64,000 bases of DNA from Bacteroidaceae bacterium (lineage in GTDB: Bacteria > Bacteroidota > Bacteroidia > Bacteroidales > Bacteroidaceae): NCBI GenBank assembly GCA_017445145.1, contig JAFSVI010000144.1, positions 36,992 to 100,991 of the forward strand. The letters are read 5' to 3'. Positions 10,241 to 58,510 of the stretch are shown piece by piece. The position numbers and the translations under genes are program-made. Position 1 is the stretch's first letter, and each line of letters begins with the position of its first letter. The notes beneath the pieces were generated by a model. The model had not been told where the DNA came from, made no database searches, and worked only from the letters and a program-made list of their open reading frames with translations.

Positions 10241-10252
10241 GGGCTGAAGGCA

Positions 10253-11811: not shown

Positions 11812-11825
11812 TGGTGGGGTGTGGG

Positions 11826-13616: not shown

Positions 13617-13648
13617 GTGTGGATGGGCTGGGGGGATGGTGATAGGGC

Positions 13649-15412: not shown

Positions 15413-15462
15413 TATGTGTTGCTTGTACTTGTATGCGTTATAGGCACGGATGGCGGTAGCTG

Positions 15463-42091: not shown

Positions 42092-42099
42092 TATATTTG
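42092..42099 (+). promoter_or_regulatory. -7 promoter box TATATTTG (plus strand)
   Basis: The box is 64 nt upstream of the response-regulator ATG. It is the likely promoter of the polysaccharide locus. Confidence 0.5.
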
Positions 42100-42162
42100 C
42101 GCAGTTTTGGCGTTATGGCCAAGGGCGTGTTTACGCCAAATGTGTATAACCATACATCTACT

Positions 42163-42525
42163 ATGAAAAAGAAAATCCTCATCCTCGATGACAAGGAGAC
42201 CATAGCAAAGGTGCTCTCCATCTACCTCCAGAGCGAGTTCCAGTGTACGTGGCTGCCCGACGGCCTGCAGGGCGTGAAATGGCTGCAGGACGGCAACACG
42301 CCCGACCTCATCATCAGCGACATACGCATGCCGGGCATGCGCGGCGACGAGTTCCTTGAGTGGATCAAGCAGAACGACCTGTTCAAGCACATCCCCGTCA
42401 TCATGCTCTCGAGCGAGGACAGCACGAGCGAGCGCATCAAGCTGCTGGAGGTGGGCGCTGCCGACTACATCGTCAAGCCCTTCAACCCCATGGAGCTGAA
42501 GATACGCATCAAGAAAATCATCTGA
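42163..42525 (+). CDS. Stand-alone response-regulator receiver (CheY-like) protein
   Basis: ORF track 42097..42525, trimmed to MKKKILILDDKETIAKVL..DLIISDIRMPGMRGDEF..VIMLSS..GAADYIVKPF... All canonical receiver residues are present and there is no output domain. Confidence 0.85.
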   Translation: MKKKILILDDKETIAKVLSIYLQSEFQCTWLPDGLQGVKWLQDGNTPDLIISDIRMPGMRGDEFLEWIKQNDLFKHIPVIMLSSEDSTSERIKLLEVGAADYIVKPFNPMELKIRIKKII

Positions 42526-42553: not shown

Positions 42554-43711
42554 ATGTTAAGCATTATTTACCTCGGCAACGACGGGAGGATGAAGTCGGC
42601 ACTGGGATTCCTGCCGGGCTACTCCGTGCGCATGGCACGCAACTACAGGGAGCTTGCACCCGAGCGCGGCGGCGACGACGCCGCGACCAACCACCTCATC
42701 TTCATCGAGCGCCACAGCCGCCAGGAGGACCTCACCGCCATCTCCTTCGTCAAGATGCATGTGCCACGCACATACATCATACTCATCTCGCCGCCACTGG
42801 GCAGCAGCGAACGGGTGGTGTATCTCGGCGCGGGTGTCAATGACACCATTGCCGACGCGGCCAGCATCAGCGACATCCACCAGAAGGTGGCCTTCGTCGA
42901 TGACCATGCCGACCAGCTCTTTGCCGACGTGGTGGTGCAGCGGCGCCTCTTCCAGTTCCGCATACCGGCGTGGAAGCGCCTCTTCGACATCGTGTTCTCG
43001 CTCACGGCACTCATCGTCCTGGCGCCGGTGTTCCTCGCCACGGCCATTGCCATACGCCTCGAAAGTCCCGGCCGGGTGTGGTACAAGAGCAAGCGCGTAG
43101 GGGCCAACTACAAGGTGTTCGACTTCCTCAAGTTCCGGAGCATGCGACCCGATGCCGACGCACACCTCAAGGACCTTGCGGCACTGAACCAGTATGGCGG
43201 ACAGACGGAGGCCCCGGCATCCGTCAGCAGCGAGGCGGCACTGGAGACGCTCATCGCCAACCCCGGCACACCGATTCTCATCGGCGACGACGGCATGGTG
43301 CTGGCCGACGACTTCGAGCGCCAGCGCGAGGCCGAGCGCAGCGCCGCCTTTGTCAAGATCGAAAACGACCCGCGCATCACACGCGTGGGGCGCTTCATAC
43401 GCAAATACAGCATCGACGAGCTGCCGCAGCTCATCAACATCCTACGCGGCGACATGAGCGTCGTGGGCAACCGGCCACTGCCGCTCTACGAGGCCGAGAA
43501 GCTCACCGACGACGACAGCATTGACCGCTTCATAGCCCCGGCGGGCCTCACCGGCCTCTGGCAGGTGATGAAGCGCGGCGACAGCGGGCGCCTCAGCGCC
43601 GACGAGCGCAAGCAGCTCGACATCACCTACGCCAAGACCTACAGCTTCGCCCTCGACTGCAAGATACTGCTCAAGACCGTCACCGCATTCATACAGAAGG
43701 AAAACGTTTGA
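42554..43711 (+). CDS. Initiating phosphoglycosyl transferase (bacterial sugar transferase family) with a degenerate receiver-like N-terminal domain
   Basis: The C-terminal part is ..[86 protein letters not shown]... The N-terminal roughly 120 aa align with the neighbouring receiver but with ND for DD, HLIFIE for DLIISD, and no conserved Lys. Confidence 0.8.
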
Positions 43712-43821: not shown

Positions 43822-44646
43822 ATGTACAGACGCACAATAACGGCAATAGCCGTGGCACTCGCGGCCGCTGGCGCCCACGCTCAGGACGTCGAACGCCAGC
43901 GCGACGGCGCCACCAACGAGGACAATGGCATCGTGGCCGGATTCTTCGACACGGCCGACGGCTCCAAAATCAACTTCTCCGAATTCAAGCTCCCGCCACT
44001 GAGCGAGCTGTTTGCCAACGCGCGCACCAACCCCTCGGTGGAGATGATTGCACGCGAGGAGGAGATACAGCGCGAACTCATCAAGAAGGAGAAGCGGAGC
44101 CTGCTCGAATACATCAGCGTGCATGCCAACTACACCTACGGCATCATGGACAACTATGGCAGCAACTCCACCGTCACCTCGCCCATCTACTACCAGTACA
44201 TGGGGTCGAAGCAAAGCTACTGGAACGTGGGGGCGAGATTCCACATGCAGCTCGACGAGGGCTTCGACTACCGCGGGCGCATACGCCGCCAGAAGCTCGC
44301 CGCCGAGAAGGTGCGCATGGAGAAGGAGAAGGCTTTCGAGGAACTCAAGCAGAAGATAGCATCGCTCTACGTCAGCATAACCAACAAAATCATCGCCCTC
44401 AAGACCGCCGGCGAGAACGCAGCCGCATACAAGGGCGCCGGCATGCTCACCGACCAGGAGTTCAAGATGGGCGACGTCACCGTGCGCGACCTCGCCGAGA
44501 CAAAGCGATGGGAGAACGAGGCCGTGGGCAACTACCAGACGCTGCAGGCGCAGATCGAGCAGGACATACTCATCCTCGAGATCATCACCAACACACCCAT
44601 CATAACCAACGCGGCAGCCGACGTGCACGTTGACAGCGGCAACTGA
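43822..44646 (+). CDS. Half-size TolC-like outer-membrane-factor protein (single OEP repeat)
   Basis: ORF track 43708..44646, trimmed to MYRRTITAIAVALAAAGAHAQ (signal peptide). It has long heptad-like helices flanking a short beta segment (..ISVHANYTYGI..YWNVGARFHMQL..). At 274 aa it is about half the size of a canonical OMF, which I recall as roughly 450 aa. Confidence 0.55.
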   Translation: MYRRTITAIAVALAAAGAHAQDVERQRDGATNEDNGIVAGFFDTADGSKINFSEFKLPPLSELFANARTNPSVEMIAREEEIQRELIKKEKRSLLEYISVHANYTYGIMDNYGSNSTVTSPIYYQYMGSKQSYWNVGARFHMQLDEGFDYRGRIRRQKLAAEKVRMEKEKAFEELKQKIASLYVSITNKIIALKTAGENAAAYKGAGMLTDQEFKMGDVTVRDLAETKRWENEAVGNYQTLQAQIEQDILILEIITNTPIITNAAADVHVDSGN

Positions 44647-44692: not shown

Positions 44693-46855
44693 ATGGAAAT
44701 CATACAATATATCTCACGATTCCTCTACCGCATACGCTGGTACCTGCTCATCATCCCGCTCATAGCCGTCATCGTGGCTTGGATGCTCACCCGCGAGATT
44801 CCCAAGAAGTTCGACGTCGAGACAACCATCTACACCGGCATCATCTCAGGCTACACGCTCGAAGGCTCCGTCTCGGTCAACTCAAGGGTGAACATGGCCA
44901 ACCTGCTCAACATCATACAGACCGAGAACACCATCAAGCGCGTGGCAACACGCCTGCTCGCCAGATGCCTCATGTACGGCGACCCCGAGCACGACAACAA
45001 CTACATCAGCGCAGAGCACTTCCGCGCACTCGAGGCCGCAACGCCCGTCGAGGTGAAAGCGCTCGTCGATAAGCGCAGCGAGACACACACCACCGACAAC
45101 CTCACCGCCTACGCTCACCCAACGCCCGGCAACTTCGTCTATGGCATTCTCGAGCGACATCCCTACTTCGGCGTGCGCTCCATCGCCAGCAAGCTCATCG
45201 TGGCGCAGATGGGCGAGAGCGACATGATCCACATAGCCTACTCCAGTGACGATGCCGGCATAGCATTCAACACGCTCGAGATACTCAACGAGGAATTTAT
45301 CAACCAGTACCAGACCATTCGCTTCGGCGAGACGAACAACGTCATCAAGTTCTACGAGGGGCAGGTCAACCGCCTCTACCGCATACTCTGTGCCAGCGAG
45401 GAAAACCTCATCAACTACAACATCAGCAAGCGCATCATCAACTACGGCGAACAGACAAAGCAGGTCGCCATACTCGACGCCGCCCACAAGACCATGCAGA
45501 ACGGGCAGCTCATGTCGTACACCGCCGAGAAGGCCATACTCGACTACCTCGAGGCACAGATGGGCGACCGCGTCAACCTCTTCCGCCAGAACGAGGAGTT
45601 CATACAGTCGCAGCAGCGAATATCAAAGCTCATGTCGCGAGTGAGCAACATGCAGCTCATGGCCGAGGAAAACGACGCACAGGCCATTGGCGAGCTGCAA
45701 CGCGCCCGCCGCGAGCTGCAGGAGGAGGAGAACCACGTGCGCGAACTCACCGAACGCATAGCGCAGAACAACGCCGGCAGCAGCAACGGCGTGCGCAAGG
45801 ACGACCTCATGAAAACGTGGCTCGAGCAGTCGCTCAAGACGCTCACCACAGAGGCCGAGATGCGCACCATGAACATCATGCGACGCAACATCGACGACGA
45901 CTTCCTCTACTTCTCGCCCATCGGCGCCACCCTCAACCGCAAGGAGCGCCACATAGGATTCGTCGAGAGCAACTACATGGAGATGCTGCGAGCACTCAAT
46001 GCCGCACGCCTCCGCCTGAAGAACCTGCAGATGACCACTGCCACACTGCGAGTGCTCAACCCGCCAATGTTCCCCATCAACTCAGCACCCAACAACCGCC
46101 TCATGGTGTTGCTGGCATCGTTCTTCATCTCGCTGCTGGCCACGGCGGCATACTTCTTCGTCATAGAGCTGCTCGACCGCACACTGCGCGACCGACGGCG
46201 CACAGAGCACCTCACCAAGTGCCCCGTCATAGGCTGCTACCCGCAGGAGAGCTCGCTGCGCTACCGCAAATACAACAAGGTCATTGCCGACATGGCCATA
46301 CGCCAGCTCAGCAAAGCGCTGCTCCCACACATCGACAACGGCGGGCGCAACATCATCAACCTGCTATCCACAGCACCCGGCGACGGCAAGAGCTATGTGG
46401 CCAACGAGCTCGAGGAACTGTGGATGTCGATGGGCCTGCAGGTGCGACGCATCACCTACGACGAGGACTTCCTCACCGACGATGCCACATACATCCTCGC
46501 ACAGCGCGTCGAGGACCTGTGCCCCGACTTCGACGAGAAGGAGGTGCTCATCATCGAGTACCCGCCGCTCGACGAGCACGAGGTGCCGCCAACGCTCATC
46601 AACCAGGGCACGCTCAACATCGTCGTGGCCAGGGCCAACCGCACATGGAAGGACATCGACGACAAGGCGCTGCGAGCACTGCTCTCACGCCTCATCGACA
46701 AGAGCAACATCTTCTTCTATCTCACGGAGGCCGGACGCGAGGCCGTGCAGGAGTTCACCGGACAGCTGCCGCCATACACGCCCTTCAAGAACTTCACCTA
46801 CCGCATGTCGCAACTCGGGCTGACAGCCTCGGAGAATGCCCCAAGGGGCAAATAA
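44693..46855 (+). CDS. Polysaccharide co-polymerase (Wzz/GumC-like) fused to a degenerate BY-kinase-like P-loop domain
   Basis: ORF track 44630..46855, trimmed to MEIIQYISRFLYRIRWYLLIIPLIAVIVAWML (TM1). It has a long coiled-coil periplasmic region and a second TM (LMVLLASFFISLLATAAYFFVI). The C-terminus has ..LLSTAPGDGKSYVA.. and ..VLIIEYPPLDE... There is no C-terminal Tyr cluster. Confidence 0.7.
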   Translation: MEIIQYISRFLYRIRWYLLIIPLIAVIVAWMLTREIPKKFDVETTIYTGIISGYTLEGSVSVNSRVNMANLLNIIQTENTIKRVATRLLARCLMYGDPEHDNNYISAEHFRALEAATPVEVKALVDKRSETHTTDNLTAYAHPTPGNFVYGILERHPYFGVRSIASKLIVAQMGESDMIHIAYSSDDAGIAFNTLEILNEEFINQYQTIRFGETNNVIKFYEGQVNRLYRILCASEENLINYNISKRIINYGEQTKQVAILDAAHKTMQNGQLMSYTAEKAILDYLEAQMGDRVNLFRQNEEFIQSQQRISKLMSRVSNMQLMAEENDAQAIGELQRARRELQEEENHVRELTERIAQNNAGSSNGVRKDDLMKTWLEQSLKTLTTEAEMRTMNIMRRNIDDDFLYFSPIGATLNRKERHIGFVESNYMEMLRALNAARLRLKNLQMTTATLRVLNPPMFPINSAPNNRLMVLLASFFISLLATAAYFFVIELLDRTLRDRRRTEHLTKCPVIGCYPQESSLRYRKYNKVIADMAIRQLSKALLPHIDNGGRNIINLLSTAPGDGKSYVANELEELWMSMGLQVRRITYDEDFLTDDATYILAQRVEDLCPDFDEKEVLIIEYPPLDEHEVPPTLINQGTLNIVVARANRTWKDIDDKALRALLSRLIDKSNIFFYLTEAGREAVQEFTGQLPPYTPFKNFTYRMSQLGLTASENAPRGK

Positions 46856-46867
46856 GCCCACACGCCC

Positions 46868-48433
46868 ATGCCGCAACGCGATGCCGACACCAACCACGGC
46901 GCCACAGCCGCCACGCCGACGACGAAGCACGACAGCCCCCGCACGCTGCCGCTCATCTTCATCGCTGGCTTCACTGTCAACTACCTGCTCATGGGCCTCA
47001 GCCGCTATGGATACATGCTGCCCATACCGACGTCGGCACACGTCGAACTCGCATACCTCGTGCTCATAGCCTACGGAGCAGCCCACGCACAGCGATGGGG
47101 CACCGGCGCCAGCCGTGCCATGGGGCCGATGATTGGCATCTACCTCGCGTGGACGTTCTTCTCAACCATTCAGGCCGTGAACCTGAGCAGCGAGATCGAC
47201 TTCTCAACCATCATCACGCGATGGCTGGCCGAATACCGCACCATGACGCTGCAGGTGTTCTGGGCATTCATGGTCAACGGCCTCTACTTCAAGCGCATGG
47301 AGCAGGTGCGCGCCCTCTACCGCCTATGGGCCCTGCTCACCATAGTGGCCGTGGCGTGGGGCTTGCGCCAGCAGTTTGGGGGCTTCGACCGCGCCGAGTG
47401 GGCTTGGCTCCTCGCTGTGGGCATGAAGACTCACTTTGTCAATGGCATCATACGCTACTTCTCCTTCTTCTCCGAAGCGGCCAACTACGGATGCTGCATG
47501 GGGGCATCGACAGTGGTGTTCGGGGTGCTCTTCCTAACCACGACGTCGTCCAAACGCGACAGGATGCTCTTCGGCCTGGCTGCCGCAGCCGCGCTCTACG
47601 GCATGATGGCCTCCGGCGCGCGGGCTGCCATCTTCGTGCTCGCCGCCGGACTCATGGCCTACTGCGTCATCTCCAAGCGCATAAGCACCCTCATAGCCAC
47701 CATGGTCGTCGGAGGTCTCTTCGTGGGCTTCCTCATGCTCACCGACATCGGACAGGGCAACGCCATGATACGCCGCATGCGCTCGGCCTTCAACAAGGAG
47801 GACAACTCGCTCGCTGTGCGCGAAATCAACAAGGCAACCATGAAGCGGTACATCGACGCCATGCCTTTTGGCCTCGGCGCCGGCATCCGCAACAGCGACG
47901 TGCCGCCAAGCAACAAGAACCACTACCTGGCCACCGTGCCGCCCGACTCCACATGGGTTTATGTCGATATCCACTACGGCCACCTCGGACAGCTGCTCTT
48001 CCTGCTCTCCTTCGGCGGCATGATAGCCATCGGGGGCATGAAGGTGCTCTTCAACATCCGCGACCCGGAGCTGAGCGGGCAGATGGCGGCCATCGTCGCC
48101 GGCTCCTTCGCCATGTTCGTGGCGGGATATGCCAACCAAATCATGTTGCAGTTCCCCAACACATGGCTCTTCTTCGGCAACCTATCCCTCGTGGCACTGG
48201 CCGAGGAGATGGAGCAGCAGCGCAATGCCGACCTCGCGGCAGCTCAGGGCAACGCCCCGCATACGGCCGAGACGGCACACCACAGCATCTTCCCGCTCGA
48301 GAGCCAGCCACCACTCGCCTACCCGCTCGACAACCCACCCGCCAGCCAGGCTCCACTCGACACCCAAACGCCTGTCGCCTTCCCGCTCGACAACCTACCC
48401 GCCGACATCTTCCCACTCGACCACAAAGCATAG
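46868..48433 (+). CDS. O-antigen ligase/polymerase-like (Wzy_C domain) polytopic membrane protein with a C-terminal decapeptide-repeat tail
   Basis: 521 aa with many hydrophobic segments. ..LYGMMASGARAAIFVLAAGL.. is a Wzy_C-like loop/helix. The tail is FPLESQPPLA YPLDNPPASQ APLDTQTPVA FPLDNLPADI FPLDHKA. Confidence 0.65.
   Translation: MPQRDADTNHGATAATPTTKHDSPRTLPLIFIAGFTVNYLLMGLSRYGYMLPIPTSAHVELAYLVLIAYGAAHAQRWGTGASRAMGPMIGIYLAWTFFSTIQAVNLSSEIDFSTIITRWLAEYRTMTLQVFWAFMVNGLYFKRMEQVRALYRLWALLTIVAVAWGLRQQFGGFDRAEWAWLLAVGMKTHFVNGIIRYFSFFSEAANYGCCMGASTVVFGVLFLTTTSSKRDRMLFGLAAAAALYGMMASGARAAIFVLAAGLMAYCVISKRISTLIATMVVGGLFVGFLMLTDIGQGNAMIRRMRSAFNKEDNSLAVREINKATMKRYIDAMPFGLGAGIRNSDVPPSNKNHYLATVPPDSTWVYVDIHYGHLGQLLFLLSFGGMIAIGGMKVLFNIRDPELSGQMAAIVAGSFAMFVAGYANQIMLQFPNTWLFFGNLSLVALAEEMEQQRNADLAAAQGNAPHTAETAHHSIFPLESQPPLAYPLDNPPASQAPLDTQTPVAFPLDNLPADIFPLDHKA
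48291..48420 (+). repeat. Five copies of a 30-nt degenerate tandem repeat (core YCCRCTCGA) at the 3' end of the Wzy-like gene
   Basis: The core recurs at 48291, 48321, 48351, 48381 and 48411, an exact 30-nt period. Confidence 0.85.
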
Positions 48434-48456: not shown

Positions 48457-49419
48457 ATGCCTGAACTGTCATTCGTCACCATCAACTTCAACGGCCTGGC
48501 CGACACCACGGCGCTCATACGCTCGCTGCAGAGCGTGGTACACTCCGTGAGATGGGAGCTGGTGGTCGTTGACAACGCCTCGGCCGGCAACGATGTATTC
48601 GCCTTGCAGACCATCTTTGCTGCCGACCCACGCGTGCGCATCATTCAGGCATCGCGCAACCTGGGCTTCGCCGGTGGCAACAACCTCGGCATTGCGGCGG
48701 CAAAGGCGCCATGCATCATGCTCATCAACAACGACACCCTCGTGGAAACCGACCATTTCCGCCAGCTCACCGACCGCATCCAATGCGACACATCCATAGG
48801 CATCATATCGCCGAAGATACGCTATGCCACGCCAGGACGATTCATACAATATGCAGGATTCACCGACCTCACACCCGTAACGCTGCGCAACGCCGCCATA
48901 GGTCATGGCGAACCCGACAACGGGCAGCACGACACACCCCGTCCCACGGCCTTCGCCCACGGGGCTGCCATGCTCTTCACGCGCCACACACTCGATGCCG
49001 CAGGTCCCATGACGGAACAGTATTTCCTCTACTATGAGGAGATGGACTGGAGCATGCAGGTGCGGCGCGCAGGACTCACCATCTGGTATGACCCCGTGCA
49101 GACGGTGTTCCACCGCGAAAGCCGCACCACGGGAGCCAACTCACCATTGCGCGCGTACTACATGACACGCAACCGCCTCCTCTTCGCACGCCGCAACCGA
49201 CGCCAACCCACACGGGCCCTCGCCATGGCCTACGTATCAGCCGTGGCACTCCTGCGCGACGTGCCACGCCACCTGCTCACCCGCCACACATCCTTGGCAG
49301 CGGCAACTCTGCGCGGCCTCCGCGACTTCTGGTGCGGCAACCTCCACCAGCCACTCCCACAACACCACCAACAACCCCTACAAAGCCCAACCTCACCAGC
49401 GGCCAACCCTACCCCATAA
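48457..49419 (+). CDS. Glycosyltransferase family 2
   Basis: This is the 3' part of ORF-track entry 45817..49419. MPELSFVTINFNGLADT..VVVDNAS..GFAGGNNLG..LINNDTLV..YYEEMDW... Confidence 0.8.
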   Translation: MPELSFVTINFNGLADTTALIRSLQSVVHSVRWELVVVDNASAGNDVFALQTIFAADPRVRIIQASRNLGFAGGNNLGIAAAKAPCIMLINNDTLVETDHFRQLTDRIQCDTSIGIISPKIRYATPGRFIQYAGFTDLTPVTLRNAAIGHGEPDNGQHDTPRPTAFAHGAAMLFTRHTLDAAGPMTEQYFLYYEEMDWSMQVRRAGLTIWYDPVQTVFHRESRTTGANSPLRAYYMTRNRLLFARRNRRQPTRALAMAYVSAVALLRDVPRHLLTRHTSLAAATLRGLRDFWCGNLHQPLPQHHQQPLQSPTSPAANPTP

Positions 49420-49432: not shown

Positions 49433-50845
49433 GTGCTCTGGCAAATAGTCTCCATACTCGACATCATCCTCTTCATCATGGTGCTCATCACTGTGGTGTA
49501 CCTGAGCGTGTTTGCCATCGCCAGCCTCTTCTACAGCAAGTTCGAGGCACCAGCCACACGCAAGACAGCACGCATTCTCATACTCATCCCATGCTACCGC
49601 GCCGACGACATCTACCAGCTCACGCTCGACGCCATCGCCGCCCAGGACTATGACCCTCGTGCCATCGACATCATGGTGGTCTCCGCCGGCAACAAGCCCA
49701 TCACAAACATGAAGCTCGCGCAATATAACCTCACCATGTGCATCATGCCCGAGGACGAATATACCGACGTGCGCGCGTGGCAGTTCGGCATGGACCACTG
49801 TGCACCACTAAGGCTCTACGACATAGTGCTCATCATCGAAGCCGGAGAGACGATGCAACCCACATATCTCACCGACATCAACGAGGCTTTCCAGCTCGGC
49901 TCGAAAGCCATACAGACACACCGCACGTACCCGCACCGCACGACACCGAAGGAAATGCTCACTGCCACCTTCGAGGAAATCAACTCCAGCATCTTCCGCA
50001 TGGGCCACGTGGCGCTGGGGCTGTCGTCGGGTCTCCTGGGTTCGGGCATGGCCTTTGAGCACAAATGGTTTCGCGACAACATCGGCCTCCTGACCGCCGA
50101 CAGCGACCTCAAAGCCTTTGAGGCAATGGTGCTTGCCGCCGGACGCTACGTTGACTACCTCGACGACACGCACTTCGTCGGCAAGCCGCAGAAAGCCGTC
50201 GGCGGACTGCCCGTCATCGACCGCTCGAAATGGATGTACGCACAGTGGCACGCCCTGCGCACTCACGTCAAGGACCTGCCGCGAGCCATCCTGCAAGGCA
50301 ACCCCGACCTCTTCGACAAGGTGTTCCAATGGATTCTCATGCCGCGAGTGGTTATGATGAGCATTATCGCCCTCATGTGCGTCATCACGCCCCTCTTCTG
50401 GTGGAGCATGACGCTGAAATGGCTCGTCATGGGCTTCTGGGTGATGCTGGTGTTCGCCATCGCCACGCCCGACTACCTCATCAACCGCGAGTGGGAGAAG
50501 GCTTTCATCTACGCCCCGCTGCTCATGGTCAAAGCCCTCTTCGACGCACTGCCATCGGGATGGGCGCTGGCATTCACCCGCAGCCACAAGGACGAGTGGA
50601 TCGACGACTTGCGCCAAGGCAGCGAGATGCTGATGGAACAGGGCGAGAAGCTCAAGGAGCAAGGAGCAAAGCTCAAGGAGCAGGGCGCAAAGCTCAAGGA
50701 GCAGGGCGCAAAGCTCAAAGCCCAGGGCGGGAAGCTCGGGGAGCGCAGCGGCTTCTTCAGCCGTCTGAGCCGCATAGCCGGTGGACGCCGACGCGACAAC
50801 ACCACCGACAGCCGCGAGGAGGAGGCACACCCATGGCCCACATGA
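49433..50845 (+). CDS. Multi-TM synthase-like GT2-fold protein with degenerate catalytic motifs and a C-terminal heptad-repeat tail (probable pseudo-glycosyltransferase)
   Basis: 470 aa with a GTG start. It is paralogous to the next gene (shared ..EEINSSIFRMGH..GSGM..). However, it has IIEAGE where the paralog has ILDADN, ADSDLKA where it has GEDKEI, and DRSKW where it has QRRRW. Confidence 0.7.
   Translation: MLWQIVSILDIILFIMVLITVVYLSVFAIASLFYSKFEAPATRKTARILILIPCYRADDIYQLTLDAIAAQDYDPRAIDIMVVSAGNKPITNMKLAQYNLTMCIMPEDEYTDVRAWQFGMDHCAPLRLYDIVLIIEAGETMQPTYLTDINEAFQLGSKAIQTHRTYPHRTTPKEMLTATFEEINSSIFRMGHVALGLSSGLLGSGMAFEHKWFRDNIGLLTADSDLKAFEAMVLAAGRYVDYLDDTHFVGKPQKAVGGLPVIDRSKWMYAQWHALRTHVKDLPRAILQGNPDLFDKVFQWILMPRVVMMSIIALMCVITPLFWWSMTLKWLVMGFWVMLVFAIATPDYLINREWEKAFIYAPLLMVKALFDALPSGWALAFTRSHKDEWIDDLRQGSEMLMEQGEKLKEQGAKLKEQGAKLKEQGAKLKAQGGKLGERSGFFSRLSRIAGGRRRDNTTDSREEEAHPWPT
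50636..50740 (+). repeat. Five copies of a 21-nt tandem repeat encoding EQGxKLK heptads
   Basis: gaacagggcgagaagctcaag / gagcaaggagcaaagctcaag / gagcagggcgcaaagctcaag / gagcagggcgcaaagctcaaa / gcccagggcgggaagctcggg. Confidence 0.9.
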
Positions 50846-52032
50846 TGCTTGCTGCCGCCATCGTCGAGATGGTGCTCTTTGTCCTTGCCGCATGGTCGGT
50901 GGCCTACGTGCTCGTTTTCGCCGTGGCGTCACACCTGCCCGCCCACCCACTGCCCATTGACGCGAAGGCACGGCCACGTTTCCTCATCATCATCCCCGCA
51001 TACGCCGAGGATGAGGTGGTGGAGTCAACAGTGAGATACGCCACAGGGCAGGCGTACCCGGACTTTGACGTGTGCGTCGTGGCCGATGCCATGCAGCCAG
51101 CAACCCTTGAGCGGCTCGCTGCCATGCCCATCACCCTGCTCCAAGCCAACTACACCGACAGCACCAAAGCCAAGGCACTGCAGCTGGCGATGGCCGAAGC
51201 CTACGTCCCCGGCCGACACACCCATGTGCTCATCCTCGACGCTGACAACGTCATCGTGCCCGACATGCTCCTGCGCATCGCCCGGCACTGCACCCGCGAT
51301 GTCAAGGCCATACAGCTCCACCGCAAGGCCAAGAACACCGACACCGATGTGGCCATGCTCGACGCCGTGAGCGAGGAAATCAACAACAGCATCTTTCGCC
51401 GCGGCCACAACCGCCTCAACATGGCGGCGGCGCTCATCGGCAGCGGCATGTGTCTCGACGCACAGTGGTTCGCCGAGGCTGTCAAGGGCCTGCAGTCGGC
51501 CGGCGAGGACAAGGAGATTGAGCGCCAGCTGTTGCTCGACGGCCACACGACAATCTTTGCCGACACGCTGCCGGTGCTCGACGAGAAGGTAACCACACAC
51601 ACCAGCTTCGGCCGGCAGCGCAGACGATGGCTTGCCGCTCAGGCATGGGCCTTGGCACACATGGTGCGCGGTCTGCCACAGGCCTTCGCACGGCGCTCGC
51701 CGACGCGGCGCCTCGACTATCTCGACAAAATGCTGCAACAAACACTCGTGCCGCGCTCGCTGCTCATGGTGCTCACCGCCGCGATGCTGCTTGTCACGAT
51801 AGTGGCTGCCGCCACAGGCCTGGCACCATGGAGCATGCCCCTGCGGTGGGCCGTGCTCGACGTGTGCCTCGACACCGCCATTCTCCTGGCCATACCCCGC
51901 ATCATGTTCGGCCCGCGCCTGGCCAAGGCCGTCGCTGCCCTGCCACCGATGCTGTGGCAGATGGTGGCGGCTCTGTTCCACATGCGCGGCGCTTCCCACA
52001 ACTTCATCCACACCAGCCACGGAAAGCCATGA
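50833..52032 (+). CDS. Multi-TM processive-type GT2 glycosyltransferase (synthase-like; D,D,D,QxxRW motifs present)
   Basis: ORF track 50230..52032, trimmed to MAHMMLAAAIVEMVLFVLAAW (TM). Also ..FLIIIPAYAEDEV.., ..VLILDADN.., ..GSGMC.., ..GEDKEI.., ..FGRQRRRWLAAQ.., followed by C-terminal TMs. Confidence 0.75.
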   Translation: MAHMMLAAAIVEMVLFVLAAWSVAYVLVFAVASHLPAHPLPIDAKARPRFLIIIPAYAEDEVVESTVRYATGQAYPDFDVCVVADAMQPATLERLAAMPITLLQANYTDSTKAKALQLAMAEAYVPGRHTHVLILDADNVIVPDMLLRIARHCTRDVKAIQLHRKAKNTDTDVAMLDAVSEEINNSIFRRGHNRLNMAAALIGSGMCLDAQWFAEAVKGLQSAGEDKEIERQLLLDGHTTIFADTLPVLDEKVTTHTSFGRQRRRWLAAQAWALAHMVRGLPQAFARRSPTRRLDYLDKMLQQTLVPRSLLMVLTAAMLLVTIVAAATGLAPWSMPLRWAVLDVCLDTAILLAIPRIMFGPRLAKAVAALPPMLWQMVAALFHMRGASHNFIHTSHGKP

Positions 52033-52877
52033 ACCATTGGTACGACACATACCTCAGCGTCTATGACAAGCCCTTCGACCCCGTGGCACAGGCCAACGTC
52101 ATCGACGACATCCGACACCGCATGGCTGCCCTGCAGACGCAACAGCCCGTGACGACCGTGGCCGTCATTGCCTACAATGAAGAGCGACACCTGCTGGCGT
52201 GCCTGTGGAGCCTGAGCCACATGCAGACCCCATTCCCCGTGGAGGTCATTGGCATAGACAACGACAGCACCGACCGCACAGCCGACATCTTTCGCGCGTG
52301 CGCGATACCTTATTATATAGAGACGCGCCACAGCTGCGGGTGGGCAAGGCAGTGTGGCCTCAGCCACGCGCGAGGACGCTACCACCTCAACATCGATGCC
52401 GACACTATGTACCCGCCAGCCTACGTGGAACTCATGACGCGCCAACTCCAACACAAGGGCGTGGTGGCCGTGAGCAGCCTATGGAGCTACATACCTGATG
52501 CCACACACTCAGCCACAGCACTCCGCCTCTATGAGGCATTGCGCGACACCCACCTGTGGCTGCAGCACTTCAGCCGGCCGGAGCTTGCGGTGAGGGGGCT
52601 TGTATTCGGCTACCACACCGATGCTGCACGCCGCTTTGGCATTCGCACCGACATCGTCCGCGGCGAGGACGGCTACCTGGCCTACCAGCTGCGCGACGTG
52701 GGCAAGATACGTTTCCTGCGCGACCGGCGAGCGCGGGCCGTCACCGGCTACGGCACCGTGGGCGAGAGCCTCGCCGTGGCCCTGCGCCACCGTGTGGGCA
52801 AGTACCTGCGGGCATTCACCAACTACCTCACGCCCTCGCGCCAATACCGCGACGACCCATCAAACCTCGTGACATGA
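52029..52877 (+). CDS. Glycosyltransferase family 2
   Basis: ORF track 51627..52877, trimmed to MNHWYDTYLS.. (ATGA overlap). Also ..VAVIAYNEERHL..IGIDNDSTDRT..LNIDADT... Confidence 0.75.
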   Translation: MNHWYDTYLSVYDKPFDPVAQANVIDDIRHRMAALQTQQPVTTVAVIAYNEERHLLACLWSLSHMQTPFPVEVIGIDNDSTDRTADIFRACAIPYYIETRHSCGWARQCGLSHARGRYHLNIDADTMYPPAYVELMTRQLQHKGVVAVSSLWSYIPDATHSATALRLYEALRDTHLWLQHFSRPELAVRGLVFGYHTDAARRFGIRTDIVRGEDGYLAYQLRDVGKIRFLRDRRARAVTGYGTVGESLAVALRHRVGKYLRAFTNYLTPSRQYRDDPSNLVT

Positions 52878-53821
52878 CACCCGACGTCACCATCATCATA
52901 CCCGTCTATAACACAGCATCGTACCTCAAAGCCACTATAGCAAGCCTTGAGGCTCTCGACCCGCGGCTGACCTACCAGTTCATCTGCGTGGACGACGGCT
53001 CCACGGACACCTCGCCACACATGCTCGCACAGTGGGCACAACGCGACGGGCGGGTGGAGGTATATACGCAGCGCAACCAGGGACAGAGCGTGGCACGCAA
53101 CGCGGCACTCAGCCATGTGCGGGGCATGTGGACCTACTTCCTCGACAGCGACGACATCCTCATGCCCGACGCCCTCGTGGCAGCCCACGCCGCTGCCACG
53201 CGCCACGGTGCCGACATGGTGCTCTTCTCAGGCACCATCATCGATGAGCAAGGGCAGCACATCGACGAGGCCGAAGGCACCATCTTCACACATCAGCGCT
53301 ACCAGCGCCCCGACGCCTTGCCCGGTGACAGGTGCATCGATGGGGTGCAGGTTATGGACATACTGCTCAAACACTACATCTTCCGCGCCGTACCATGGCT
53401 ATACATGGTGCGCACCGACTTCCTCCGCAACAGCGGCATCACCTTCCATCCCGGCATCATCCACGAGGACGAGCTGTTCACCGCAACGCTCACCCTCGCT
53501 TGCCACAACGTGGTCACACTCCACCGCACCCTCGTGCTGCACCGCATACGCCAGTCGAGCACCATGGGTCAGCGCTTCTCGCGCCGCAACATGGACTGTC
53601 TGCTCACCGTCATCGACGGCGTGGAGCAATGGGTGACACACCACCCCGAGCGGCGGCGCCCGGCATGGGACTACTGCCGCTACACCCTCAACCACGTGCT
53701 CATCACGGCACGCTCGCTGCCGCTGCCCGACCGCTGGGCAGCGCTGCGCCGCATCGTGGGCAGCGGCTACCTGCCTTACGTGGAACCCAAACGCCTCATC
53801 CTCTTCATCTATGGCAGATAG
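52874..53821 (+). CDS. Glycosyltransferase family 2
   Basis: ORF track 52556..53821, trimmed to MTPDVTIIIPVYNTASYL..VDDGSTD..NQGQSVARN..FLDSDD.. (ATGA overlap). Confidence 0.8.
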   Translation: MTPDVTIIIPVYNTASYLKATIASLEALDPRLTYQFICVDDGSTDTSPHMLAQWAQRDGRVEVYTQRNQGQSVARNAALSHVRGMWTYFLDSDDILMPDALVAAHAAATRHGADMVLFSGTIIDEQGQHIDEAEGTIFTHQRYQRPDALPGDRCIDGVQVMDILLKHYIFRAVPWLYMVRTDFLRNSGITFHPGIIHEDELFTATLTLACHNVVTLHRTLVLHRIRQSSTMGQRFSRRNMDCLLTVIDGVEQWVTHHPERRRPAWDYCRYTLNHVLITARSLPLPDRWAALRRIVGSGYLPYVEPKRLILFIYGR

Positions 53822-55361
53822 AGTCAGCAAAAGCCTCAAGAATGCGAAGGTGAACTTCATCTTCTACTTCCTCGGACTCTTCTTCGCGTTCTTCTCCCGA
53901 CGCATCTTCCTCGAGTGCCTCGGCGAGGAGTTCGTGGGGCTGACGCTCACCCTGGGCTCCATACTTGGCTACCTGAACCTGGCCGAGCTGGGCATATCGT
54001 CGTCGATAAGCTATTTCCTGTACAAGCCGCTGCAGGGCAACGACCGCCGCGAAGTGGCCGACGTGCTCTCGCTGCTGGGCTACCTGTACCGCTGGATAGG
54101 GCTTTTCATCCTCGTCGCTGCCGTGGTCATCAGCCTGTTCTTCCCGCTCATTTTCGGCGGCAAGGGGCTGAGCATGGGCATCATCTATTTTGCCTTCGCC
54201 AGCATACTGGGTTCGCAGCTCATCGGCTATTTCATCAACTACCGCGAGATTCTCCTCGCCGCCGACCAGAAGCAGTATCTCGTCAGCGTCTATTACCAAA
54301 GCGCAGGGCTGGTGAAGACGGCCCTACAGATAGCGCTGGCCTACACCTGGGGCAACCCCTACGTGTGGGTGGCCATAGAGTTTGTGTTCGGCGTCATTGC
54401 CTGTGCTGTCCTCAACTGGAAGATCAACCGCGAGTACCCGTGGCTCCACACCGACAAGAGCCGTGGCCGCGAGCTGCTGCGGCGCTACCCCGAAGTAATG
54501 CGCAAGACGCGCCAAGTGTTCGTCCACCGCATCAAGGACTTCGTGCTCACCAAGAGCGACGAGCTGTTCGTGTTCCTCTTCGTCTCGCTCAAGATGGTGG
54601 CATACTATGGCAACTACACCATGATAGCCACCAAGATCTCGCAGCTCTTCACCACCGTGCTCAACAGCGTCAACGCCGGAGTGGGCAACCTCGTGGCCGA
54701 GGGCAACGAGGAGCTGGAGCAGCGGGTGTTCTGGGAACTCACGGCGCTGAGGCAGGCCGTGGCGGCCATCATCAGCTACGGTCTGCTCATGCTCCTACCA
54801 TCGTTCATCGCCATCTGGGTGGGCGAGAAGTACGTCCTCTCGCCATGGGTGCTCATCCTGCTCGTGGCCTACACCTTTATGAACCTCACGCGGGCCGTGG
54901 TCGATATCTTTAACCATGCCCACGGCCTCTACGACGACGTGTGGTCGTGCTACGTCGAACTTGGGTTGAACGTGGCCGTTACCTTCACCCTGGGGCCGCT
55001 CTTCGGCATCGCCGGCATCCTCGCCGGCAAGCTCGTCAGCGTCGGCCTCATCATCATGGTGTGGAAACCCTATTACCTCTACCACCGTGGCTTCCACATC
55101 GGCGTGAGGCAATACTGGAGCGGCACGCTGCGCTACTATGCCATACTCCTGGCGAGCGCCGCACTCGCCGCTGCCACCACCATGCTCATACCGCTGCCCG
55201 AGGCTGCCAACTTCGTCCTTTGGCTGCTCAGGGCCGTGGTGGTGATGGCCATATACCTGGCGTTCTACCTGCCCATGCTGTGGTGGTTCGGCCGCGGGGC
55301 GCGCGACTGTGCCCACCGCCTGACCACACTGCTGCCTCACGGGCTGCGCCCCCGACATTAG
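53811..55361 (+). CDS. wzx: Oligosaccharide flippase (Wzx; MOP/polysaccharide-biosynthesis family)
   Basis: 516 aa. MADRVSKSLKNAKVNFIFYFLGLFFAFFSRRIFLECLGEEFVGL... It has about 12-14 hydrophobic segments. Confidence 0.75.
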   Translation: MADRVSKSLKNAKVNFIFYFLGLFFAFFSRRIFLECLGEEFVGLTLTLGSILGYLNLAELGISSSISYFLYKPLQGNDRREVADVLSLLGYLYRWIGLFILVAAVVISLFFPLIFGGKGLSMGIIYFAFASILGSQLIGYFINYREILLAADQKQYLVSVYYQSAGLVKTALQIALAYTWGNPYVWVAIEFVFGVIACAVLNWKINREYPWLHTDKSRGRELLRRYPEVMRKTRQVFVHRIKDFVLTKSDELFVFLFVSLKMVAYYGNYTMIATKISQLFTTVLNSVNAGVGNLVAEGNEELEQRVFWELTALRQAVAAIISYGLLMLLPSFIAIWVGEKYVLSPWVLILLVAYTFMNLTRAVVDIFNHAHGLYDDVWSCYVELGLNVAVTFTLGPLFGIAGILAGKLVSVGLIIMVWKPYYLYHRGFHIGVRQYWSGTLRYYAILLASAALAAATTMLIPLPEAANFVLWLLRAVVVMAIYLAFYLPMLWWFGRGARDCAHRLTTLLPHGLRPRH

Positions 55362-55442: not shown

Positions 55443-56324
55443 GTGTCACCAACGTTCTCCGTCATCATACCGCTCTACAACAAAGGCCGCTACATCGATG
55501 CCACGCTGGCATCGGTGACGGCGCAGACCTTCGCCGACATGGAGGTGATAGTCATCGACGACGGCTCCACCGACGACGGTCCGGCACGCGTGGCAACCCA
55601 CGCCTCAGCCGACACGCGGCTGCGGCTGCTCCGCCAACCCAACGGCGGCGTGTCGGCAGCACGCAACGCCGGGCTGCGTGCCGCACGTGGCGAGTGGGTG
55701 GCGTTCTTGGATGCCGACGACACCTGGATGCCGACATACCTCGCCGAGATGCACGCCCTGGCACGGCGCCACCCCGAAGCCGGCCTCTGCGCCTGTGCGC
55801 GGCAAGGGCGGCGCATCCCCACACTGCCAGAGGAATGCGTCGTCAGCGACGCGGCAGCCTGGGGTGTCATCTATTGGACAGGCACCACCATGGCGCGGCG
55901 CACGCTCTTCGCCACCGCCGGTCTTTTCCGCGAAGGCATCAGCCGTGGCGAGGACCGCGACATGTGGCTGCGCCTGGGTCTGCACGCACCCACGGCATTC
56001 CTCAACCGCGAGCTGGCCCGCTATGAGGAGCACGCCGCAGGGAGCCTCACGGACTTGGTGCCACTGTGCCACGAGTTCCCATACTGGGAGTGGTACGACC
56101 TGCCCCGCCGCTACCCCACCCTGCGCCATATCAACCCCGCCCTGCCTGCCACATACCGCGACAGCATACGCCGCTATGCCACCAACCAGCTCATGCAGCT
56201 GGCCAACGCCCATTTCCGGGCCGGCCACCGGAAGGATGCACTGCGCGTGCTGCTGCGTTGTCGCGGCATGTCGGACATGCGCGCCCGTCTGCAGCTGCTG
56301 CGGCGCATCCTCACCCAATGGTGA
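55443..56324 (+). CDS. Glycosyltransferase family 2
   Basis: GTG start. (M)SPTFSVIIPLYNKGRYI..VIDDGSTD..NGGVSAARN..FLDADD... Confidence 0.8.
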   Translation: MSPTFSVIIPLYNKGRYIDATLASVTAQTFADMEVIVIDDGSTDDGPARVATHASADTRLRLLRQPNGGVSAARNAGLRAARGEWVAFLDADDTWMPTYLAEMHALARRHPEAGLCACARQGRRIPTLPEECVVSDAAAWGVIYWTGTTMARRTLFATAGLFREGISRGEDRDMWLRLGLHAPTAFLNRELARYEEHAAGSLTDLVPLCHEFPYWEWYDLPRRYPTLRHINPALPATYRDSIRRYATNQLMQLANAHFRAGHRKDALRVLLRCRGMSDMRARLQLLRRILTQW

Positions 56325-56372: not shown

Positions 56373-57305
56373 ATGCCCCTATTCTCCGTCACCATCCCCG
56401 CATACAAGGCCAAATATCTGGCCGAGACCATCGACAGCGTGCTCGCGCAGCAATGTCCCGACTTCGAGCTCATCATCGTCAACGATGCCTCGCCCCACGA
56501 CCTCGACGCCATCGTGAACCGCTATGCCGACCCGCGCATACGCTATTTCACCAACGAGCACAACTGCGGCGCGCGCAATGTCGTTGACAACTGGAACATC
56601 TGCCTCGGCCATGCCCGCGGGGAATATGTTTGCTGCATAGGCGACGACGACACACTCACACCCACCTACCTCGCTGACTTTGCCGACCTCATCGGGCGCT
56701 ATCCACAGGTGGACCTCTTCCACGCACGCTCGGTGATCATCAACGACAGGTCGGAGGTCGTGGAGCAGCTTGAGCAGCGGAAGGAATGGGAATCCGTGTA
56801 TTCCCTCATCTGGAACCCGCGCAACACCCACCTCGGCGACTTCCTCTTCCGCACGTCAGCACTGCGCAGCTGCGGCGGCTTCTACCGTCTGCCCTACGGC
56901 TGGGCGGCCGACGACCTCACGGCCTTCACCGTCGCCGCTGCCCACGGGTGCTGCAACACCCAGCGTGTGGGCTTCTGCTATAGGGGCAATGCCGAGAGCA
57001 TCAGCCACGACATGACGTGCATCGAGGACAAGATACGTGCCTACCAGCACTGGGGGGAATGGATGGCGCATTTCCTCGAGCGCGAGCCTTCCGACCCCGA
57101 CGACCGCCGTCTGCGCCTGCTAATCGCTGCCGGTCTGCGCCACTATGTCGAGGCCCACATCGACGACATGGTGGAATGGGACATACGGAAAGCCCCGCTG
57201 CGGCGTGGACTGTTCTGGCTCACACACCACACGGCCCACGGCATCTCGCTGCGCAGATACCTGCGCGCCACCGCCAAGGCGCTCAAACACCGCATCCTAT
57301 CATAA
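56373..57305 (+). CDS. Glycosyltransferase family 2
   Basis: MPLFSVTIPAYKAKYLAETIDSVLAQ..IIVNDAS..CCIGDDD... Confidence 0.8.
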   Translation: MPLFSVTIPAYKAKYLAETIDSVLAQQCPDFELIIVNDASPHDLDAIVNRYADPRIRYFTNEHNCGARNVVDNWNICLGHARGEYVCCIGDDDTLTPTYLADFADLIGRYPQVDLFHARSVIINDRSEVVEQLEQRKEWESVYSLIWNPRNTHLGDFLFRTSALRSCGGFYRLPYGWAADDLTAFTVAAAHGCCNTQRVGFCYRGNAESISHDMTCIEDKIRAYQHWGEWMAHFLEREPSDPDDRRLRLLIAAGLRHYVEAHIDDMVEWDIRKAPLRRGLFWLTHHTAHGISLRRYLRATAKALKHRILS

Positions 57306-57322: not shown

Positions 57323-58510
57323 ATGGAGATAGCCATACTCACCTCGGGCATACTGCCCGTGCCAGCCACTCAGGGCGGTGCCGTGGAGGCGCTCATCGAC
57401 CACTACATCAACCGCAACGCCCTGACGGGTGAGCACGAGTTCACCGTGTTCAGCGTGGCGCCGCCGACCGGCACACCCCGCCCCACCCTGCCCCACACCT
57501 CCTACGTCCATGTGCCGACAGCCACCCCATGGGCACGCATGCGGCGCAAGCTGCGGTCGTGGCTGTCCGCGCCAGGGTTCTACAACTATTTCATCAACGA
57601 CTTCTACCTCACGTGCCGCCAGCGCCTGTTGCGCCGGCGCTGGGACGCCATTGTGCTCGAGAACCGCCCGGGCTACGCCATAGACCTGCGGCGCCACTAC
57701 GATGGTCCCATCATCCTGCACCAGCATCTCGACAGCGTCAATGCCGACACTCCGCGTGGCGACGACATCTGCCGTGCGCTGACCCACGCCATCGGAGTCT
57801 CCGACTACATCTGCCGTCGCATGGCGCAGGTGGGCACACCGCTGCCGACCACAACCGTTTACAACGGCATCGACACGGAGCGCTTTGCCCGCGCAGCCAC
57901 GGCGCGGCGCAGCGACTTCGGCCTGTCGCCCGGCGACTTCGTGGTGGCCTACTGCGGGCGCATCGACCCCATCAAGGGCGTGGCCGAGCTTATCGACGCG
58001 ATGGTGCAGCTGCGTGACATGGGCAACCTGCACCTGCTCGTCGTCGGTGGCAGCTTCTACGGCAACGCCGCGGGCTGCGACACGCCCTTCATCGAGGCGC
58101 TGAAGACAGCCGCCAAGCCCATCCGCGAGCGCATACACTTCACCGGATTCGTGCCCTACGAGCGCGTGCCATCGCTGCTGAAGATGGCCGACTTGGCCGT
58201 GATGCCCTCGACATGCCAGGAGGCCTTCCAGCTCACCGTGGTCGAAGCCATGGCCGCCGGCGTGCCGGTGGTGGCAACGCGCTCGGGTGGCGTGCCGGAG
58301 ATATGCGAGGGTGTGGCGTGCATCGTGGATCATGGCGAGCATCTCGCACAGCGTCTCGCCAAGGCCATTGCCACTCTCGCAGCCGACCCTCAAGAGCGAC
58401 GCGCCATGTCCGCCAGGGGCCTCATGCGCGCCCAGCGCTTCGCCCACACGGCCTATGCCGACGCCTTCCTGCACGCTTTGACGTCAATATTACGGCCGAA
58501 AACAAAATAA
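57323..58510 (+). CDS. Glycosyltransferase family 4 (GT-B, 'glycosyl transferase group 1')
   Basis: ORF track 57017..58510, trimmed to MEIAILTSGILPVPATQGGAVE... The C-terminus has ..EAFQLTVVEAMAAGVPVVATRSGGVPEI.. (EX7E context). Confidence 0.8.
   Translation: MEIAILTSGILPVPATQGGAVEALIDHYINRNALTGEHEFTVFSVAPPTGTPRPTLPHTSYVHVPTATPWARMRRKLRSWLSAPGFYNYFINDFYLTCRQRLLRRRWDAIVLENRPGYAIDLRRHYDGPIILHQHLDSVNADTPRGDDICRALTHAIGVSDYICRRMAQVGTPLPTTTVYNGIDTERFARAATARRSDFGLSPGDFVVAYCGRIDPIKGVAELIDAMVQLRDMGNLHLLVVGGSFYGNAAGCDTPFIEALKTAAKPIRERIHFTGFVPYERVPSLLKMADLAVMPSTCQEAFQLTVVEAMAAGVPVVATRSGGVPEICEGVACIVDHGEHLAQRLAKAIATLAADPQERRAMSARGLMRAQRFAHTAYADAFLHALTSILRPKTK

Follow-up and report, generated by a model that had tools for sequence, protein, structure and literature searches.

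Membrane-embedded synthases of glycosyltransferase family 2 (GT2), among them the cellulose synthase BcsA, hyaluronan synthase (HAS), chitin synthases and NodC, are usually treated as self-sufficient enzymes. Plants also offer heteromers with a non-catalytic glycosyltransferase paralog, of which GAUT1:GAUT7 is one. In xylan synthesis, IRX9 and IRX14 are non-catalytic glycosyltransferase paralogs of plant cell-wall synthase complexes (PMC4132061). Two bacterial comparisons come from Myxococcus xanthus, in which EpsU is a GT2 enzyme of the exopolysaccharide Wzx/Wzy pathway (NF041865; PMC7484181) and EcpK is a tyrosine pseudokinase of a Wzx/Wzy machine (PMC12004946). Here we analysed a 64,000-nucleotide (nt) stretch of contig JAFSVI010000144.1 of a Bacteroidaceae bacterium (this whole stretch is called the window), which carries a tandem pair of polytopic GT2 paralogs, genes A and B. 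The catalytic motif set is intact in B and degenerate in A, and A is under purifying selection at least as strong as B. We give a probability of about 0.55 to the reading that A serves as a non-catalytic membrane subunit of the B enzyme within a Wzx/Wzy machine.

Compared with this pair, IRX9 and IRX14 are alike in being glycosyltransferase-fold proteins whose catalytic residues are dispensable or lost and which are still required, apparently as structural partners of an active paralog. They and GAUT1:GAUT7 differ in being eukaryotic Golgi type-II proteins of families GT43 and GT8, whereas A and B are polytopic bacterial GT2 proteins of synthase fold, known from sequence alone. EcpK is likewise a dead paralog kept as a working part of a polysaccharide assembly machine, but it belongs to the bacterial tyrosine kinase (BY-kinase) family and not to GT2. 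EpsU represents the best-scoring named family, a GT2 of ~394 amino acids (aa) from a Wzx/Wzy exopolysaccharide locus with a stand-alone receiver, a polyisoprenyl-phosphate hexose-1-phosphate transferase (PHPT) and a polysaccharide co-polymerase (PCP); however, A and B score far under its cut-off, it comes from another phylum, and no dead EpsU paralog has been described. The literature covered, which is incomplete, contained no account of a dead bacterial GT2 partner of synthase fold, nor of this pair or locus type.

The two genes are located as follows.

49433..50845, + strand: gene A, GTG start, 470 aa, a catalytically degenerate polytopic GT2-fold protein (A-type), identified by open reading frame (ORF), Pfam, AlphaFold2 (AF2), Foldseek and orthologs
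50833..52032, + strand: gene B, 399 aa, a polytopic GT2 with the motif set intact (B-type): VVAD85, D136-A-D138, GED226K, Q262RRRW and FIHTSH at 391-396

The GTG start of A is backed by orthologs that begin M(I/F)W..I(I/V)SI. A and B share 29% identity over 390 columns in BLASTP (E 8e-41), and their paralogy is far above chance. The Pfam GT2 scores are weak for A (PF13632 34.7 bits and PF13641 30.5 bits, cut-off 27) and good for B (PF13641 68.2, PF13632 63.6 and PF00535 38.1 bits); together with a GT-A domain in the model of A and the GT2 structural matches given below, they place the proteins in the GT2 (GT-A fold) superfamily. An earlier sequence-only reading of the window had described tandem polytopic GT2 paralogs, and its description agrees with both ORFs, with their paralogy and with GT2 Pfam matches in both; all the motif strings that it cited are found in A and B. 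No curated NCBIfam family cut-off is reached by either protein, the best family being EpsU (NF041865, cut-off 700), for which B scores 76.9 bits and A 30.3. For PgaC/IcaA (TIGR03937) the scores are 37.5 and 15.0 against 422.3, for CelA (TIGR03030) B scores 15.5 against 699.1, and B is also far under the cut-offs of NodC-type models. A PDB sequence search with B returned no match, and PDB searches with family profiles matched only the N-terminal GT-A half of solved synthases.

Over residues ~48-250, A and B are colinear and gap-free, so that the motifs stand at the same residue numbers. At 82-86 A reads VVSAG and B VVADA, at 134-139 IIEAGE and ILDADN, and at 224-230 SDLKAFE and GEDKEIE, while the QxxRW site reads DRSKW in A (263-267) and QRRRW in B (262-266). 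The non-catalytic family motifs are retained in A, namely AIQTHR at 159-164 (AIQLHR in B), FEEINSSIFRMGH at 180-192 (SEEINNSIFRRGH in B), GSGM at 203-206 in both proteins, and K..E. The degenerate sites of A are listed here.

49676..49690, + strand: A 82-86, VVSAG; the position of D1, the nucleotide-binding Asp, is Ala85, and it is variable in orthologs (A/S/C/H/Y)
49832..49849, + strand: A 134-139, IIEAGE where B has ILDADN (DxD); the second Asp is Gly, and E136 and E139 do not vary in the A family
50102..50122, + strand: A 224-230, SDLKAFE where B has GEDKEIE; Leu stands at the site of the catalytic-base Asp226, and the neighbouring Asp225 is invariant
50219..50233, + strand: A 263-267, DRSKW in place of QRRRW; the Gln and the diphosphate-binding Arg are lost (the Arg is Gly in most orthologs), and R264 and W267 are kept

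A profile of 135 family members aligned to solved GT2 structures confirmed the D1 and DxD registers. For the base, conserved K227 and E230 (~150 homologs) fix the gap-free register, so the base Asp is Leu in A; a BLASTP register that sets D225 of A under the catalytic D226 of B was rejected, as it needs a gap unsupported by the multiple alignments and by the identical numbering. BcsA requires the fourth-position Arg of QxxRW, which binds the diphosphate of the donor (PMC9934533, from which the roles of both the Arg and the Trp are taken). The D, DxD, ED, QxxRW set of processive GT2 synthases that the sequence-only reading had assigned to B is all present (VVAD85, D136-A-D138, GED226K and Q262RRRW), and A fails at each of these places (A85, E136-A-G138, S-D-L226-K and D263-R-S-K-W), with no intact Asp or QxxRW placed elsewhere in A by the alignment. 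That all catalytic motifs of A are lost, as it had also stated, is right for D1, the second Asp of DxD, the base Asp, and the Gln and fourth-position Arg of QxxRW, but too strong for the QxxRW helix, where R264 and W267 remain.

The orthologs of A form 11 clusters at 90% identity, are 58-75% identical, are all full length and all carry the same degenerate motifs, so the description of A as a catalytically degenerate paralog of an intact enzyme applies to the whole family. This fully dead form is a single 50%-identity cluster among 1.84 billion representatives, with the next match falling from 829 to 367 bits. It occurs in three GTDB species only, in metagenome-assembled genomes (MAGs) labelled Prevotellaceae or Bacteroidaceae, and the DNA runs with the region are gut metagenomes only.

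We compared the conservation of A and B in the same orthologous loci, judging constraint by identity since synonymous sites are saturated at these divergences. Relative to the window, A is 59.5-74.7% identical and B 46.4-59.0%. The excess of A over B is greatest in the membrane helices, with identities among orthologs of 0.73 against 0.53 in the first transmembrane helix (TM1), 0.70 against 0.42 in the TM hairpin and 0.75 against 0.45 in the last helix; for the two halves of the GT-A domain the values are 0.61 and 0.73 in A against 0.53 and 0.67 in B. Relative to a more distant locus, L010, the order flips (A 35%, B 43%), a reversal consistent with rapid change along the stem branch of the A family before tight constraint set in. 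Among near-identical strains, A differs only by the in-frame copy number of a heptad repeat and by 3 substitutions. A is thus under purifying selection at least as strong as that on B, strongest in the membrane helices, and it has the marks of a pseudoenzyme: a homolog of an enzyme family with its catalytic residues replaced and its ORF conserved under purifying selection.

The A-B neighbourhood is kept in 5 independent orthologous loci. When metagenome contigs were scanned with a broad A-type alignment and family members classed against the family hidden Markov model (HMM), 80 loci emerged; a B-type gene stands directly after the A-type in 72/72 loci with room downstream, and the A-type stop and the B-type start usually overlap. 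The two genes are therefore conserved as neighbours in other genomes, on which the sequence-only reading had made its proposal of a paired complex depend. Upstream and downstream genes can be told apart by a loop motif.

50462..50485, + strand: A 344-351, ATPDYLIN, after the TM hairpin; the motif marks A-types (76/80 A-types, 0/66 B-types)

The form PDYL(I/V)x is present in 76/80 upstream genes and FIHTxH in 0/80; FIHTxH is a statistical marker only, as its strict regular expression misses variants (36 intact representatives have no exact match). The catalytic motifs behave very unequally in the two partners. Full-length B-types have all four in 66/66 cases and FIHTxH in 64/66, while full-length A-types keep all four in 32/79 and have lost at least one in 47/79 (DxD in 36, QxxRW in 21, ED in 13 and D1 in 3). 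Loss of all four is seen only in the A family of the window. The A-types make up 59 clusters at 90% identity and 21 at 70%, and they form one clade separate from the B-types. Because intact and degenerate A-types are interspersed in this tree, the motif losses arose several times; the upstream partner in L010 is an intermediate, with D1 and the second Asp of DxD gone and GEDKELE and QRGRW intact. Mean pairwise identity is 0.633 for A-types and 0.645 for B-types, and where both A-types are degenerate it is 0.598 against 0.606 for their B partners. These equal rates indicate that loss of catalytic residues does not free the protein from selection.

Across at least 59 distinct tandem pairs (counted as A-type clusters at 90% identity) of gut and rumen Bacteroidales, the active site of one partner is always retained and that of the other is repeatedly lost, yet the second partner is equally conserved. 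On comparative grounds, this asymmetry argues strongly that a synthase-fold protein has an essential role other than catalysis. The series from intact through partly decayed to fully dead A-types is a natural set of mutants that can be used to probe such a role, and the label 'glycosyltransferase family 2' overstates the function of A-type genes in annotation.

The same comparisons bear on the idea that A is a recently inactivated glycosyltransferase without function, a pseudogene in the making by which serotype would vary through loss of one sugar. Loss of catalytic residues in glycosyltransferases for surface glycans is a common route of antigenic variation, and the losses among A-types are mosaic and recurrent. 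However, the ORFs are full length in all 11 clusters, their identity of 58-75% at species-level divergence is above that of B, near-identical strains vary by in-frame heptads and 3 substitutions, and degenerate A-types evolve no faster than B. Conservation on this scale effectively refutes the pseudogene.

For the fold, an AF2 model of A built from the 11 orthologs alone was discarded (predicted local distance difference test, pLDDT, 52.6), and the model from the 135-sequence alignment reached pLDDT 84.4 with a predicted template modelling score (pTM) of 0.76. It is laid out as TM1 (2-31), the GT-A domain (48-249), interface helices (261-301), a TM hairpin (305-344), an amphipathic helix resembling interface helix 3 (IF3) of BcsA (352-372) and one long tail helix (374-432). 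The top PDB match in Foldseek is the hyaluronan synthase 8smm (E 3.5e-12); against BcsA (4hg6) the model gives TMq 0.58 with a root-mean-square deviation of 5.2 over 414 columns, and against the non-processive membrane mannosyltransferase PcManGT (6yv7) TMt 0.60. Superposed on BcsA and HAS (TMq 0.44-0.58), however, it has only one N-terminal TM helix and one TM hairpin. The order of QxxRW helix, TM hairpin, amphipathic helix and short motif is the BcsA order of IF2, TM5-6, IF3 and gating loop, and in BcsA the gating loop, FxVTxK, follows IF3 (PMC9934533). On these predictions A and B share a membrane GT2 fold of the hyaluronan/cellulose-synthase kind. The short motifs after the IF3-like helix differ between the partners.

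52000..52020, + strand: B 390-396, NFIHTSH; near-invariant in B-types, after the IF3-like helix at the site of the BcsA/CesA gating-loop FxVTxK, and in no A-type
50573..50599, + strand: A 381-389, FTRSHKDEW; near-invariant in the A family, occupying the place of the C-terminal FIHTxH of B-types

Where synthases have a gating loop of the form FxVTxK or WGTR/KG, B-types thus have FIHTxH and A has FTRSHK. By position and pattern, FIHTxH would be a gating-loop-like element, and the C-terminus of B-types would then be cytoplasmic. The pair resembles BcsA, HAS, chitin synthases and NodC in the predicted fold, in the order of GT-A domain, QxxRW interface helix, TM hairpin, IF3-like helix and a motif at the gating-loop site, and in the D, DxD, GEDK and QRRRW of B. 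It differs from them in having ~3 TM helices, no PilZ domain and no BcsB/PgaD-type partner, in lying in a Wzx/Wzy-type locus, and in a partner A without catalytic residues.

The surrounding locus is as follows, beginning with the genes upstream of the pair.

42097..42525, + strand: stand-alone response-regulator receiver (PF00072 91.8 bits; synteny 27/31); the true start is probably ~60 nt downstream (orthologs ~120 aa)
42554..43711, + strand: polyprenyl-phosphate glycosylphosphotransferase, the initiating enzyme (PF02397 196.6 bits; TIGR03025 243 bits; synteny 30/33)
43822..44646, + strand: half-size TolC/OEP-like outer-membrane protein, 274 aa (PF02321 51 bits; synteny 37/38)
44693..46855, + strand: PCP-like protein, 720 aa (TIGR03007 78 bits, under cut-off; synteny 42/43)
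46868..48433, + strand: polytopic protein resembling Wzy_C and O-antigen ligase (PF04932 27.1 bits against a cut-off of 31.7, orthologs flagged PF04932; synteny 50/52)
48457..49419, + strand: soluble GT2, rhamnosyltransferase-like, preceding the pair (PF00535 54.8 bits; TIGR01556 69.6 bits; synteny 64/66)
52029-52877, + strand: GT2 downstream of the pair, variable part
52874-53821, + strand: GT2, variable part
53811-55361, + strand: flippase-like polytopic protein, 516 aa (synteny 33/41)
55443-56324, + strand: GT2, variable part
56373-57305, + strand: GT2, variable part
57323-58510, + strand: GT4, variable part

Beside A and B there are an initiating enzyme and several single glycosyltransferases (six GT2 and one GT4), as in Wzx/Wzy pathways, and by its predicted gene content this is a Wzx/Wzy-type heteropolysaccharide locus and not a synthase-dependent operon. 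The 516-aa protein, which stands in the flippase position, matches nothing in Pfam or NCBIfam and is not similar to the Polysacc_synt_3 flippase of locus L006. A Wza/OPX exporter is absent from the locus, with the half-size TolC-like protein in its place. The order of OEP-like, PCP and Wzy-like genes is kept in many Bacteroidales loci (L010, L012, L018, L019 and 37/38 metagenome loci). Synteny is low for downstream GT2 genes (GT2_282 2/58, GT2_315 8/47) and 33/41 for the 516-aa protein. On these comparisons the receiver, the phosphoglycosyl transferase, the TolC-like outer-membrane protein, the PCP, the Wzy-like protein, the soluble GT2, A and B make up an eight-gene conserved core, followed by a variable glycosyltransferase part. 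The hosts of the core locus are uncultured gut and rumen Bacteroidales, so that the analysis defines an exopolysaccharide core in abundant, uncultured gut bacteria of this order.

This context bears directly on what B does. The sequence-only reading had proposed a synthase/co-polymerase model; its degenerate A beside an intact B, in a conserved pair, stands, while the pathway that it implied does not match a Wzx/Wzy-type locus. In its full form the model takes B as a processive, self-translocating synthase of the HAS/BcsA/NodC kind that makes a homopolymer or backbone, with A as co-polymerase, channel partner or regulator in a synthase-dependent pathway. HAS and BcsA are indeed the best structural matches of the A model, GEDK and QRRRW read as in chitin, hyaluronan and Nod-factor synthases, FIHTxH stands at the gating-loop position, and with ~3 TM helices per protomer a dimer could be needed to form a channel. 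On the other side, the conserved core holds an initiating phosphoglycosyl transferase, a Wzy-like protein, a PCP, usually a flippase-like protein and many single glycosyltransferases; B scores far under PgaC/IcaA (37.5 against 422), CelA and NodC-type cut-offs; and the A model matches PcManGT equally well in structure (TMt 0.60). The presence of D, DxD, ED and QxxRW alone does not establish processivity, because the non-processive glucosylceramide synthase (GT21) carries the same motifs. We therefore regard this model as unlikely. B may act once or processively, and the Wzx/Wzy context, which argues against the processive alternative, makes it as likely that B extends a lipid-linked repeat unit as that it is a processive secreting synthase.

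The constant adjacency of the two genes, their usual overlap, the intact B and the dispensable site of A lead us to prefer the partner model, in which A is a non-catalytic subunit of the B enzyme. A and B are an old tandem pair of membrane-embedded GT2 paralogs, each predicted to consist of one N-terminal TM helix, a cytoplasmic GT-A domain, interface helices, a TM hairpin and an IF3-like helix, with B as the catalytically competent enzyme. A would share the membrane with B, and the two, their genes being translationally coupled, would probably form a heterodimer. A would lend its TM and interface region and its acceptor-side residues (R264, W267, EEIN..FR.GH and GSGM) to hold or pass the lipid-linked glycan, and its cytoplasmic heptad-repeat tail of variable length may be a spacer or adaptor to another component. 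The physical complex, the handling of glycan by A, and the place and role of the tail are suggested by these features. A more far-reaching version is tentative, and we think it could well be wrong: all A-types would be pseudo-synthase subunits of HAS/BcsA fold, obligate heterodimers with their B-type, that lost the gating-loop-like motif first and then, repeatedly, D, DxD, ED and QxxRW, and that now provide half of the membrane groove or channel which the two partners would share for the lipid-linked glycan. The family of the window would then be the end point, with a strain-variable, single-helix 'ruler' tail. If true, heterodimers with one degenerate site would have a bacterial counterpart embedded in the membrane.

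Several observations weigh against A as a non-catalytic partner of B. With all four motifs present in 32/79 A-types, the ancestral A-type was probably an enzyme, and partly degenerate A-types may still be active. A itself keeps the invariant acidic residues E136, E139 and D225 at or beside the old catalytic sites, so that an altered chemistry is conceivable. No RNA-seq run with the sequence was found. Finally, a separate group of degenerate polytopic GT2 proteins (P0147, P0148 and P0155) is encoded directly after a Wzy_C gene and before a GT4 gene, with no adjacent intact paralog. These genes are located as follows.

L015 1190-2344: degenerate GT2 after the Wzy gene, without an adjacent B-type
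L018 5648-6841: degenerate GT2 after the Wzy gene, without an adjacent B-type
L019 4523-5704: degenerate GT2 after the Wzy gene, without an adjacent B-type

In L018 there is no B-type within 12 kb, and in L019 the B-type is 7 kb off on the other strand, so such proteins can function without an adjacent intact paralog. In L012 the position after Wzy_C is filled by an intact enzyme. A single 'A-type' class comprising all degenerate relatives, perhaps independent of B, was considered and dropped, as the metagenome scan shows the A lineage always paired with B and the post-Wzy proteins separate and more distant.

The retained acidic residues raise the alternative that A remains an enzyme: non-canonical residues could do the catalysis (E136/E139 binding metal and D225 serving as base, for instance), or A could act on the glycan in a new way. 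None of the 11 A-family clusters departs from E136, E139 or D225, the GT-A cores of the two proteins are equally conserved, and the motif-complete A-types point the same way. Four independent donor-site elements (D1, the second Asp of DxD, the base Asp and the diphosphate-binding Arg) have nevertheless gone together, there is no gating-loop-like motif, and across the A-type lineage the residues at these sites are unrelated (G, S, T, N, V, L, E and others), as expected of relaxed constraint and not of a new conserved site. An enzymatic A is accordingly improbable in our judgement.

The post-Wzy proteins in turn speak for A as a non-catalytic scaffold of the polymerisation and export core (Wzy-like protein, PCP, flippase), with its adjacency to B a mere operon order left from duplication. 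Besides the degenerate polytopic GT2 directly after Wzy_C, then GT4, without an adjacent B-type in L015, L018 and L019, this reading can draw on the excess conservation of A over B, strongest in the membrane helices, and on the constant position of the pair, which immediately follows the Wzy-like gene and one GT2. In the A-type lineage itself, by contrast, a B-type is directly downstream in 72/72 testable cases with frames overlapping or abutting, which is tighter than for any of the genes farther downstream in the locus, and we consider the scaffold a doubtful explanation.

The C-terminal tail and the junction with B distinguish the A family further. The last ~90 residues of A are present neither in B nor in the wider A-types, and they contain or adjoin the following features.

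50635..50744, + strand: tandem repeat, 21 nt x 5.2 copies, coding for KLKEQGA heptads in the A tail (Tandem Repeats Finder, strain alignment, orthologs)
50816..50825, + strand: Shine-Dalgarno (SD)-like element GAGGAGGAGG, coding for the conserved C-terminal REEEA of A and ending 7 nt before the ATG of B
50833..50845, + strand: A/B overlap of 13 nt, from the ATG at 50833 to the TGA at 50843-50845; sister strains have a 4-nt ATGA at the same ATG

Near-identical strains have 3, 4 or 5 heptad copies while B is constant at 399 aa, and orthologs carry related (E/Q)QG(A/G)K(L/I)(K/V) heptads in differing numbers. The repeat is predicted to lie within a single helix (pLDDT 72-86), and each heptad has one hydrophobic residue and i to i+4 Glu-Lys pairs. 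The extra tail claimed in the sequence-only reading is there and is predicted as a long helix, but with one hydrophobic residue per heptad it would be a single charged helix acting as a spacer rather than the coiled coil that was proposed.

The 13-nt overlap noted at the outset is likewise correct for the window strain and is 4 nt (ATGA) in sister strains, where A stops 9 nt earlier and ends in AHP and B begins MTHMM. The ATGA overlap at the same ATG supports 50833 as the start of B. GAGGAGGAGG is the sole SD-like element among the 13 gene starts checked in the operon, and GGAGG-like elements also precede B in L003, L007 and L008. Bacteroidales rarely use SD sequences, and the element is unusual in that respect. 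At this site a peptide motif, REEEA, and a putative ribosome-binding role of GAGGAGGAGG are inseparable.

Some further observations concern the neighbouring genes. The receiver (42097-42525) is by far the most conserved gene of the locus: its protein identity is 99% with L001, L003 and L009 and 85-95% with much more distant loci, compared with only 35-72% for the genes beside it in those loci. The C-terminal part of the 720-aa PCP-like protein contains a P-loop-like GDGKS; no kinase family is matched, but a degenerate BY-kinase (pseudokinase) domain may be present. Positions 49344-49383, at the 3' end of the soluble GT2 gene, hold a 21-nt repeat in 1.9 copies, CCACCAACAACCCCCACAACA, which yields a Pro/Gln-rich C-terminal tail. 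The G+C content rises from 53-55% at 1-4000 to 66-68% at 6000-16000, and it is ~60-64% in the polysaccharide locus. Upstream of the locus and divergent from it lies a GDP-mannose pyrophosphorylase-like gene (40892-41950, - strand; PF00483 132 bits), and L001 has an additional fucokinase/GDP-fucose pyrophosphorylase gene; these genes hint at GDP-sugar donors for the polysaccharide.

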